Of a DNA stretch of 64,000 bases, positions 8,782 through 9,894 are shown piece after piece. Position numbers and translations under genes: made by a program. The notes under the pieces were generated by a model. The model did not search any database. It was not told where the DNA came from and saw only the letters and a program-made list of their open reading frames with translations. The stretch's first letter is position 1. Every line of letters begins with the position of its first letter. This DNA is from Escherichia coli (GTDB taxonomy: Bacteria > Pseudomonadota > Gammaproteobacteria > Enterobacterales > Enterobacteriaceae): NCBI RefSeq assembly GCF_051903065.1, contig NZ_CP178438.1; one strand, 5' to 3'.

Positions 8782-9894
8782 ATGGAATCGCTCTCAGAAG
8801 GAACCACAGCAGGCTACCAGCAAATCCACGACGGCATTATTCATCTGGTCGATAGCGCCCGGACGGAAACGGTACGTAGCGTTAACGCGCTGATGACCGC
8901 GACATACTGGGAAATTGGCCGACGAATTGTCGAATTTGAACAAGGTGGCGAGGCCAGGGCTGCGTATGGTGCGCAGCTAATCAAGCGACTATCAAAGGAT
9001 TTAAGTCTAAGGTATAAGCGTGGATTTTCCACCAGGAATTTATGGCAGTTTAAGAATTTTTATATTTGTTTTCAAAGAATTGAAATTGTGCAGACACTGT
9101 CTGCACAATTCACCCCCACAATTCTCCAGACTGTGTCTGGAGAATCTTGCCATTTAGCGCAACTCGCCAAATCCTTCCCCCTGCCCTGGTCCACCTACGT
9201 CCGTTTACTTTCCGTTAAAAACGCTGACGCCCGCAGCTTTTATGAAAAAGAGACGCTCCGCTGTGGCTGGTCTGTTCGCCAGCTAGAACGGCAAATTGCG
9301 ACCCAATTTTATGAGCGAACACTGCTGTCACATGACAAATCAGCCATGCTGCAACAACACGCTCCTGCCGAGACGCATATTCTTCCGCAACAGGCGATAC
9401 GCGATCCCTTTGTGCTCGAATTTCTGGAATTGAAAGATGAATACTCAGAATCCGATTTTGAGGAGGCGCTGATCAACCACCTGATGGATTTCATGCTGGA
9501 ACTTGGGGATGATTTTGCCTTTGTTGGTCGGCAGCGAAGGTTACGCATTGATGACAACTGGTTTCGGGTCGATCTGTTGTTTTTCCACCGCCGTTTACGC
9601 TGCCTGCTAATCGTGGATCTAAAAGTGGGCAAATTCAGCTATAGCGATGCCGGACAGATGAATATGTATCTCAACTACGCCAAAGAGCACTGGACGCTAC
9701 CGGATGAAAATCCGCCCATCGGTCTGGTTCTCTGTGCAGAGAAAGGAGTCGGAGAAGCGCATTATGCACTGTCTGGTTTGCCTAACACCGTTCTGGCGAG
9801 TGAATATAAGATGCAACTACCTGATGAAAAACGACTCGCGGATGAACTCGTTCGAACACAGGCGGTGCTAGAAGAAGGCTATAGACTCCGTTAA
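8782..9894 (+). CDS. yhcG: DUF1016 / YhcG-family PD-(D/E)XK nuclease-like protein, function unknown
   Basis: 370-aa ORF; the C-terminal part carries a PD-(D/E)XK-like core (FRVDLLFF ... LIVDLKVGK); the N-terminal region resembles YhcG-family proteins (YWEIGRRIVE..., RNLWQFKNFY, WSVRQLERQI). Confidence 0.75.
   Translation: MESLSEGTTAGYQQIHDGIIHLVDSARTETVRSVNALMTATYWEIGRRIVEFEQGGEARAAYGAQLIKRLSKDLSLRYKRGFSTRNLWQFKNFYICFQRIEIVQTLSAQFTPTILQTVSGESCHLAQLAKSFPLPWSTYVRLLSVKNADARSFYEKETLRCGWSVRQLERQIATQFYERTLLSHDKSAMLQQHAPAETHILPQQAIRDPFVLEFLELKDEYSESDFEEALINHLMDFMLELGDDFAFVGRQRRLRIDDNWFRVDLLFFHRRLRCLLIVDLKVGKFSYSDAGQMNMYLNYAKEHWTLPDENPPIGLVLCAEKGVGEAHYALSGLPNTVLASEYKMQLPDEKRLADELVRTQAVLEEGYRLR
9084..9110. 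repeat. Perfect 13-1-13 palindrome aattgtgcagaca-c-tgtctgcacaatt, inside the yhcG reading frame (encodes VQTLSAQ)
   Basis: Read directly from the sequence; the two arms are exact reverse complements. Confidence 0.9.
9121..9145. repeat. Inverted repeat with 11-bp arms and a 3-bp spacer, attctccagac-tgt-gtctggagaat, inside the yhcG reading frame (encodes ILQTVSGE)
   Basis: Read directly from the sequence; shares the attct...agaat flanks and the cagac/gtctg core with the palindrome at 9910-9934. Confidence 0.9.

Follow-up and report, generated by a model that had tools for sequence, protein, structure and literature searches.

The yhcG locus and its palindromes

The gene yhcG of Escherichia coli encodes a nuclease-like protein of the DUF1016 family, and a short palindrome lies in frame within its coding sequence. 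The locus was analyzed in a stretch of 64,000 nucleotides (nt) of an E. coli genome (RefSeq assembly GCF_051903065.1, contig NZ_CP178438.1), referred to here as the window, in which the gene order is gltB-gltD-yhcG-nanQ-nanK-nanE-nanT-nanA. The gene is a single open reading frame of 370 codons that runs from ATG to TAA with no interruption (Table 1). A 1.6-kb query around it matches a RefSeq E. coli chromosome with 100% identity, and at identical or near-identical loci RefSeq names the gene yhcG or "PDDEXK nuclease domain-containing protein" and places it between gltD and nanQ. The protein is 90-98% identical to E. coli proteins named YhcG family or PDDEXK nuclease domain-containing. The open reading frame is E. 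coli yhcG, an already catalogued K-12 gene; the new part is the palindrome inside it, which occurs in frame throughout the family.

Three palindromes of 25-29 nt are found in the window, two within yhcG and one past its stop codon. They share the pattern AATT-NNN-CAGAC-NNN-GTCTG-N'N'N'-AATT. The sequence CAGACNNTGTCTG occurs five times in the window (three sites, two of them matching on both strands), compared with 0.01 expected. A covariance model made from relatives matched the window only at these three places with E values of at most 1e-7: 9081-9113 for palindrome 1 (41.7 bits, E 1.4e-9), 9117-9149 for palindrome 2 (37.4 bits, E 3e-8), and 9906-9938 for palindrome 3 (40.9 bits). Palindrome 1 forms a hairpin under both RNA and DNA folding models. 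A preliminary description of this stretch, made from the sequence alone, had associated unusual palindromes with the gene, and these are real and far above chance. It had also called the nuclease stand-alone, which is not truly the case, since the palindromes belong to the gene family itself, a point that it did not see.

The number of palindromes varies among enterobacteria. E. coli alleles of 349, 358, 370, 375, and 382 amino acids (aa) carry one, one, two, three, and three copies, respectively, of a unit of about 12 codons, and the yhcG genes of Salmonella and Citrobacter have one palindrome copy each. Palindrome 3 occurs in 3712 of the 5426 complete E. coli genomes, at the yhcG locus only. 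It sits in a 40-nt copy of an internal segment of the gene, which in frame reads FQRFRILQTLSAES compared with FQRIEIVQTLSAQF inside yhcG, and this copy appears to be the relic of a duplicated linker fragment. The possibility of a dispersed REP-like repeat was rejected because the motif is found at no more than four places per E. coli genome, all at the yhcG locus.

Table 1. Features of the yhcG locus, in window coordinates
Feature	Position	Strand	Basis or description
yhcG coding sequence, 370 aa plus stop	8782..9894	+	open reading frame list, both Pfam domains, RefSeq annotation
DUF1016_N helical domain, aa 19-179	8836..9318	+	Pfam PF17761, E 1.5e-43
Palindrome 1, AATTGTGCAGACA-C-TGTCTGCACAATT	9084..9110		perfect 13-nt arms; encodes (E)IVQTLSAQF
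Palindrome 2, AATTCTCCAGAC-TGT-GTCTGGAGAAT(C)	9120..9146		encodes ILQTVSGES; 36 nt after palindrome 1
YhcG_C PD-(D/E)XK nuclease domain, aa 203-355	9388..9846	+	Pfam, E 1.2e-56
Catalytic-signature codons, whole span	9499..9669	+	conserved columns of 104-sequence alignment
E240 codon	9499-9501	+	
D264 codon	9571-9573	+	
D279 codon	9616-9618	+	
K281 codon	9622-9624	+	
Q292 codon	9655-9657	+	
Y296 codon	9667-9669	+	
40-nt copy of internal segment 9070-9109	9895..9934	+	repeat search; 80% identity
Palindrome 3	9909..9935		perfect 12-nt arms; about 14 nt past the yhcG stop, between convergent yhcG and nanQ

Domain structure and active site

YhcG looks like an active nuclease, a prediction based on its intact E...D...(D/E)xK...QxxxY signature. 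Both domains of the DUF1016/YhcG family (PF17761 and PF06250; COG4804) score above their gathering cut-offs, with 148.6 bits against 32.8 for PF17761 and 191.3 bits against 32.5 for PF06250. The strings FRVDLLFF (aa 261-268) and LIVDLKVGK (aa 276-284) quoted in the preliminary description are both in the reading frame, and its DUF1016 and PD-(D/E)XK assignment agrees with the matches to DUF1016_N and YhcG_C. Among 104 diverse sequences D264 is invariant, and E240, D279, K281, Q292, and Y296 are each present in at least 90%. The E240, D264, and D279-L-K281 residues of the PD-(D/E)XK fold are accompanied by Q292xxxY296, and its strand order is seen in an AlphaFold2 (AF2) model. Lack of conservation of the catalytic residues had been named as the result that would count against a nuclease, and that objection therefore fails.

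The AF2 model shows a long helical N-domain followed by a C-terminal alpha/beta nuclease core. It was made from the alignment of 104 diverse relatives and has a mean predicted local distance difference test score (pLDDT) of 86.5, falling to about 57 at residues 100-120; an alignment of 16 close relatives gave a pLDDT of only 49. The DUF1016_N domain is split by a low-confidence linker at about aa 100-123. In this model the best structural match of the C-domain is NucS/EndoMS, and other neighbours are restriction enzymes and Can2. The Pfam NucS model is not matched, the likeness being limited to the C-domain, and the N-domain is DUF1016_N. Searches with the window protein gave no NCBIfam model and no match to PDB sequences. 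The fold was predicted by Kosinski et al. in 2005, who found no functional clue (PMC1189080), and the statement in the preliminary description that the protein has no known function is borne out by annotations of yhcG, which give no demonstrated role.

Distribution of the element in the family

The element is ancestral to the whole DUF1016/YhcG family and has been maintained at the nucleotide level. The family sample consisted of 84 loci: 80 retrieved loci with relatives at 40-67% identity, the window, and three enterobacterial loci. Individual loci are cited below by L numbers. The bacteria include Beta-, Gamma-, and Deltaproteobacteria, Nitrospirae, Verrucomicrobia, Planctomycetes, Acidobacteria, Chloroflexi, Cyanobacteria, Bacteroidetes, and Firmicutes, and the archaea are Methanoperedens and Woesearchaeota. 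At least one linker palindrome is found in 80 of the 84 loci, and 113 of the 124 palindromes are in the same reading frame. The element consists of a stem of 11-12 bp and a loop of 3 nt, occurs in one to three tandem copies, and lies inside the disordered linker of the N-domain. It is also found in members with short linkers and in a member embedded in a BREX operon. More distant relatives have it as well, including an Enterobacter plasmid member at about 34% identity and a branch at about 30% identity with the peptide "IGQQxVxQLPWGH", to which Wolbachia phage WO and plasmids of Rhodococcus, Arthrobacter, and Legionella belong. The inner stem of distant members differs (for example GGTCAACA/TGTTGACC or GTGAGAAG/CTTCTCAC), and the position, the pairing, and the outer AATT are retained.

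The motif is largely restricted to the gene. In 1.13 Mb there are 68 matches inside the genes and 6 outside, and most of the 80 loci have no second copy outside the gene. On viral contigs 24 of 41 exact motif matches are within recognizable DUF1016 genes. Most of the other matches retain complementarity between their variable triplets and resemble gene relics or fragments at contig ends. It was considered that these might be free-standing target sites; this was rejected, as those examined lie in decayed linker fragments (L122) or at contig ends.

Two further observations concern the genes themselves. A Woesearchaeota metagenome-assembled genome (L086) has two DUF1016 paralogues about 1 kb apart on a single contig (5834-6838 and 7980-8993), each with its own palindrome at the canonical position; the CAGAC core is the same in both and the variable triplets differ. 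About one in eight of the retrieved homologues is broken by a frameshift or stop codon (L009, L019, L030, L040, L047, L060, L068, L070, and L079); the frame of L047 ends inside the palindrome region. The broken homologues suggest that the gene is frequently inactivated.

Selection at the nucleotide level

The palindrome is stronger than those in codon-shuffled genes. For 83 genes, taken without pre-selection for palindromes, the strongest palindrome in the whole gene was compared with that in 1660 codon-shuffled genes. It lies at a relative position of 0.22-0.33 in 96% of the genes and has a mean of 11.7 paired bases, compared with 7.5 after shuffling. At least 11 pairs are found in 67 of the 83 genes but in only 30 of the 1660 shuffles.

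Codon usage within the motif is also strongly skewed. Serine is encoded by TCT in 86% of motif codons and in 14% elsewhere in the same genes, isoleucine by ATT in 96% compared with 38%, threonine by ACA in 77% compared with 22%, and glutamate by GAA in 100% compared with 57%. The forcing of synonymous codons extends to genes with as much as 70% G+C. In 99 of 114 copies the pairing partner of a four-fold degenerate site, the third position of codon 7, is a non-synonymous site. At codon 8, no copy has the base that would make a TAA stop.

Amino acid residues in the linker follow the base pairing, and compensatory changes in the stem alter them. In 108 distinct copies, 92.8% of the aligned stem positions are paired, compared with 71.6% in shuffled and 22-45% in slid alignments. 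Changes on both sides are found in 10 of the 11 stem pairs, and there are 234 doubly changed positions where 63 are expected, a number reached by none of 500 shuffles; these copies were picked as palindromes, and the test therefore measures covariation and not existence. The two bases of the pair adjoining the centre are unassociated, so the structure is a stem of 11-12 bp with a 3-nt loop. Residues 7 and 8 of the unit change together with residue 2: AQ accompanies V, AK accompanies W, and xE accompanies L, R, or P. Swaps of the whole core yield peptides as different as SETLSRK, YATLSRK, LSTVSRE, LQSAIEE, YTVCKE, and IGEKPSHQL. Annotators should be cautious about the DUF1016_N peptide motif "IxQTxSxx / IGQQxVxQL", as it is dictated by DNA pairing and not by protein function.

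DNA or RNA

The pairing statistics favour an element that works at the DNA level over one that works as a hairpin in the mRNA. G.U pairs are usually present or tolerated in conserved RNA helices. In the palindromes, G.T combinations make up 0.8% of stem positions (10 of 1254), fewer than A.C combinations at 2.4% (30), so that sense-strand pairs of the G.U type are nearly absent. A tract of at least five T in the 8 nt after the stem is present in only 2 of 114 copies on the sense strand and 9 of 114 on the antisense strand. Rfam searches gave no match for window positions 8400-10200 at E values up to 1, nor for the element in eight related loci at the gathering score. Untranslated copies downstream of yhcG, after gltD, and in phage intergenic DNA keep perfect pairing. 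The DNA-level reading is favoured because almost all pairs are Watson-Crick combinations, no U-tract follows the stems, Rfam is unmatched, and untranslated copies stay paired. The strict two-fold symmetry is a requirement of a DNA hairpin, a cruciform, or duplex symmetry.

The strongest alternative is a hairpin in the mRNA, which might cause a ribosome pause that aids co-translational folding or dimerization, or might control stability or translation, possibly with capture of the hairpin in cis by the protein. The element is always within the open reading frame, in one frame, and directly after the codons for the first three helices. The region with two hairpins folds stably as RNA (z -5.9), and it does so also as DNA (z -7.5). 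The tandem units of 36-39 nt resemble RNA repeat antitoxins such as ToxI. However, the scarcity of G.U-type pairs, the absence of U-tracts, terminators, and Rfam matches, and the perfect pairing of copies outside reading frames speak against a role in the mRNA, which is considered unlikely.

Two smaller points concern the same data. Intrinsic terminators were rejected, including an antisense one suggested by a scan match at 9111-9083, because the 114 copies lack U-tracts on either strand. The excess of A.C (30) over G.T (10) was set aside as a sign of an antisense-strand hairpin, as the numbers are small, the copies are phylogenetically dependent, and the comparison is confounded by coding; the asymmetry was used solely as evidence against a sense-RNA helix.

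Variation at the gltD-nan locus

The gene yhcG is an old resident of the gltD locus and not island cargo, because it has the same position, immediately after gltD, in E. coli, Salmonella enterica, and Citrobacter koseri. Patchy presence at differing positions in related species, as expected of island cargo, is not seen at the gltD junction. The preliminary description had placed the gene at a variable island junction. The variation from strain to strain is real, but it does not make yhcG an island gene, and it comes from insertions, deletions, and insertion sequence (IS) hits around it. In K-12/C-type strains the fimbrial block gltF-yhcADEF is inserted between gltD and yhcG, and in Salmonella a permease and amidohydrolase pair (codBA-like) is inserted between yhcG and nanQ. 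Insertions of IS1 or IS3 are found in some E. coli strains, as is replacement of the 3' part of yhcG, and some strains have no yhcG at all. The 1.6-kb query is covered at 80% or more in only 3347 of 5426 complete E. coli genomes.

Several of these rearrangements have breakpoints at palindromes. K-12/C-type strains have an extra palindrome right after gltD (E. coli C, L002 3118-3165), and their 7-kb gltF-yhcADEF-yhcG block is thus bracketed by palindromes. The yhcG-less strain Rb-23 (L001 1600-1666) has exactly one palindrome between gltD and nanQ, and its flanks are hybrid, the 5' side resembling the gltD-proximal copy and the 3' side the copy downstream of yhcG. The absence of yhcG in such strains is best explained by a deletion between palindromes. 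In E. coli 98223 and similar strains (L003 2187-2660) the sequence is replaced from the right edge of the third palindrome onward. This removes the 3' two-thirds of yhcG and the downstream palindrome, and unrelated DNA followed by a different hairpin is found instead; a 102-aa reading frame in L003 that RefSeq calls a transposase has no Pfam match. The deletion in E. coli allele P0089 also begins at a palindrome. A prophage-like IMG/VR contig (2534681820_000001, L122) has 179-nt direct repeats at 4686-4864 and 6008-6186 with 94% identity. These are decayed DUF1016 linker fragments with two palindromes each, and they bracket a SocA/Panacea antitoxin and PemK/MazF-like toxin pair; the whole module is situated between an AAA-ATPase/PDDEXK_9 gene and a phage integrase. 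The palindromes thus appear to mark rearrangement breakpoints and to be recombination-prone as a side effect, which would account for the frequent rearrangement between gltD and the nan genes in E. coli.

The same events could also mean that the palindrome is a site for recombination or mobility. Cleavage of the hairpin or cruciform by the nuclease would then be followed by repair in which DNA is copied or excised, giving homing-like or cassette-like selfish behaviour. The single palindrome with hybrid flanks in the yhcG-less strain, the bracketed fimbrial block, and the toxin-antitoxin module between linker fragments beside an integrase are all consistent with this. In addition, the gene is wedged within conserved pairs (hsdM/hsdS, parE/parC, and gltD/nanQ) as free-standing homing endonuclease genes are, and on an Enterobacter plasmid a site-specific integrase is directly upstream of the family member. 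However, the element is within the gene and not at its borders, motif matches are concentrated in the genes, and in E. coli the yhcG locus is the only place with the motif. The enterobacterial gene is syntenic and vertically inherited, and the rearrangements can be a passive result of palindrome fragility. A mobility function is therefore regarded as distinctly unlikely.

Genomic context and links to defence and replication

Homologues of yhcG are strongly associated with restriction-modification (R-M), defence, and mobile contexts. The neighbours in the 80 loci are mostly co-oriented and abutting. The nearest upstream neighbour is an HsdM-type N6_Mtase in 13 of 74 loci, and HsdR-type helicases also occur there; the nearest downstream neighbour is Methylase_S (HsdS) in 9 of 72. 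In roughly 15% of loci the DUF1016 gene is between hsdM and hsdS. Only a minority of homologues is embedded in R-M genes, and the E. coli copy in the window is not among them, its neighbours being gltD and nanQ. Other neighbours include the TOTE conflict system, CRISPR-associated genes, RadC, integrases, and transposases. Homologues are found on 509 of 72,556 plasmid records from more than 100 genera and are rare in sequenced phages (15 of 50,697). Enrichment of the family beside Type I R-M systems and programmed inversions has been reported (PMC9881135), as has its presence in conjugative elements (PMC4316617). A purely housekeeping context, which the preliminary description had regarded as the finding that would undermine its view, is thus not what the homologues show.

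Two loci illustrate these contexts. In L130 (1133-6314) a BREX operon contains a homologue with three palindromes, placed immediately before pglZ and brxL. In L128 (173-7530) a homologue is located among NUDIX, NAMPT, SIR2-like, Macro, RNA-ligase, and PIN genes, a neighbourhood of the NAD/ADP-ribose conflict type.

A defence role for YhcG, which the preliminary description had raised as a possibility, has so far only candidate status. The protein matches PADLOC profile PDLC04807 for PDC-S02 (E 2.9e-134, aa 9-365), where PDC denotes a candidate and not a validated system. In the only report found, one PDC-S02 representative was tested against phages T4, T5, and T7 and was not among the four protective systems (bioRxiv 10.1101/2024.09.26.614923), and the role is unproven.

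It is nevertheless conceivable that YhcG is an ordinary defence or abortive-infection nuclease that backs up restriction, and that the palindrome is a neutral quirk of a tolerant linker, maintained by template switching. The PADLOC match, the enrichment beside Type I R-M and programmed-inversion loci (PMC9881135), the BREX-embedded member, and the many plasmid copies are in keeping with such a role, and the disordered linker accepts very different peptides. A neutral palindrome should decay or be deleted, yet about 95% of genes, in different phyla and at protein identities as low as 30%, have kept this one, with rare codons forced even in genomes of 65-70% G+C. The failure of the tested representative to protect, the conserved chromosomal positions, and a replication-linked synthetic lethality are also unlike a pure defence gene. 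This explanation is improbable.

The link to replication comes from genetics. Deletion of E. coli yhcG has been reported to be synthetic-lethal with hypomorphs of dnaB, dnaN, and parE (PMC2672614). Four Flavobacteriaceae loci (L074, L076, L077, and L084) have the DUF1016 gene at about 8000-9080, after a gene for a GyrB/ParE-like protein of about 620-636 aa and before one for a GyrA/ParC-like protein of about 905-925 aa, and this ParE/ParC placement echoes the yhcG-parE synthetic lethality. L074 also has a Flavo-1 small RNA (RF01705, 45.4 bits) at 16364-16454 on the minus strand, about 7 kb from the DUF1016 gene and probably unrelated to it.

A possible site for the nuclease itself

Of the readings considered, the most likely is that the palindrome is a cis-acting DNA hairpin or cruciform site of the nuclease in whose gene it lies, serving autoregulation or sequestration and reporting the class of substrate that the enzyme recognizes. 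We infer a self-site because the gene is the only thing common to all carriers and because the C-domain comes from a class of dimeric, structure-recognizing nucleases. The reading is a tentative one and may well prove wrong. The element would act as a DNA hairpin or an extruded cruciform and would be the cis site of the gene's own product, a dimeric structure-specific nuclease. Most probably the site would serve for binding, sequestration, or road-blocking, by which a nuclease that may be toxic would restrain its own expression or activity. The site may also reveal which DNA structures the enzyme attacks elsewhere, be they hairpins, cruciforms, or branched DNA, and possible targets are invading DNA beside Type I R-M systems and stressed replication forks.

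Several points weigh against a self-site. We infer binding or cleavage of the palindrome by YhcG only from the gene being the sole shared item, and the N-domain has no structural match that would indicate DNA binding. A few genes, such as that of L077, have no detectable palindrome. The scarcity of G.T pairs is suggestive evidence against RNA but is not decisive. Among the tests for selection, the 108-copy covariation set was chosen as palindromic, and only the whole-gene and codon tests escape that bias. Conservation of the 5' arm could be partly at the protein level, with the 3' arm following by pairing, in which case a sequence-specific partner is not required. Finally, template-switch "correction" of quasi-palindromes could give strict symmetry and apparent compensation without selection on each change.

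A broader form of the self-site reading, possible but more doubtful, is that the family is a self-contained module of nuclease and site, with a cognate hairpin or cruciform carried in its own linker since the origin of the family and acted on by the enzyme. If so, the action of enzyme on site could be autoregulation, self/non-self discrimination, or locus-specific recombination. Such a module would account for the spread of the family among R-M, BREX, and plasmid settings as well as for the replication-linked E. coli phenotype.

The element is of interest whether or not the self-site is correct. YhcG/DUF1016 is a large orphan nuclease family, with 24,380 representative clusters at 50% identity (E≤0.001), and it is a frequent passenger of Type I R-M systems, BREX, plasmids, and prophages. 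About twenty years after the fold was predicted, no substrate or function has been established for YhcG, and the element conserved in nearly all members is the first concrete and cheaply testable candidate for a substrate or control site. If the link between site and enzyme is true, it would be a novel mode of coupling between a nuclease and its target. If it is false, the element is still an unusually clear case in which selection on DNA or RNA structure overrides the amino acid sequence.

Comparison with known systems

No palindrome is described in the literature retrieved on DUF1016, yhcG, COG4804, PDC-S02, or the core sequence, and none is in Rfam. To our knowledge NucS genes do not carry an internal palindrome. 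YhcG differs from NucS/EndoMS (PDB 2vld, 5gke) in lacking the NucS N-terminal domain and having instead the all-helical DUF1016_N, for which there is no structural match. Mismatch or clamp-binding functions are not demonstrated for YhcG.

The closest parallels among DNA palindromes are the hairpins of REP/RAYT and IS200/IS605 TnpA systems. These are also short (about 25-35 nt), with conserved sequence and compensatory stem changes, and they are prone to seed rearrangements; they are coupled to a nuclease-type gene, as is proposed for yhcG. However, the enzymes of these systems are transposases of the HUH/Y1 type, and the hairpins lie beside the gene or are scattered between genes in many copies. 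YhcG is a PD-(D/E)XK enzyme, and its hairpin is within the open reading frame, in frame, at one fixed position. No Y1 transposase is present in the window region, and a Y1_Tnp neighbour is found in only 3 of 72 loci.

Rickettsia palindromic elements (RPEs) resemble the yhcG element in being palindromic DNA that is translated within a tolerant protein segment. RPEs are mobile repeats of 100-150 bp in many unrelated genes of one genus. The yhcG element, in contrast, is 25-29 nt long and is found in one protein family, at a constant position and frame, in many phyla. Because of this distribution it appears to have been inherited with the gene and not inserted.

Sites within the coding sequence of their own nuclease, and so inseparable from it by recombination, are also found in the origin of phiX174 gene A and in phage pac sites in terS. 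In those systems the relation of enzyme to site and its role in replication or packaging are proven, whereas for YhcG the relation is a proposal, and a replicon or packaging function is not evident.

PrrC, RloC, and RhuM/PDC-S05 share the hsdM-hsdS niche and are likewise suspected to be latent effectors that back up restriction. Their folds and targets are unrelated to those of YhcG, and E. coli yhcG is not beside an R-M system. In the study in which PDC-S02 gave no protection, a RhuM-type PDC-S05 system was protective against phage (bioRxiv 10.1101/2024.09.26.614923).

The ToxIN type III toxin-antitoxin system also combines tandem 36-nt repeat units with a nuclease gene. The ToxI repeats are non-coding, are upstream of toxN with a terminator between, and act as RNA pseudoknots. 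In contrast, the yhcG repeats are coding and often present as a single unit, and their pairing statistics do not favour RNA.

Other features between gltD and yhcG

The interval upstream of yhcG differs among E. coli strains. In the window a G+C-rich inverted repeat (CAGCGCCGCCTC ... GAGTCGGCGCTG) is found at 8608-8640, just past the gltD stop codon. This repeat probably acts as the gltBD terminator and is unrelated to the yhcG palindromes. It is missing in K-12/C-type and yhcG-less strains, where a palindrome follows gltD. The upstream region of the window allele (8599-8781) is clearly diverged from the K-12/C-type version. In K-12, a stationary-phase antisense non-coding RNA (G0-10703) is reported to overlap 128 bp of the 5' untranslated region of yhcG (PMC7967276).

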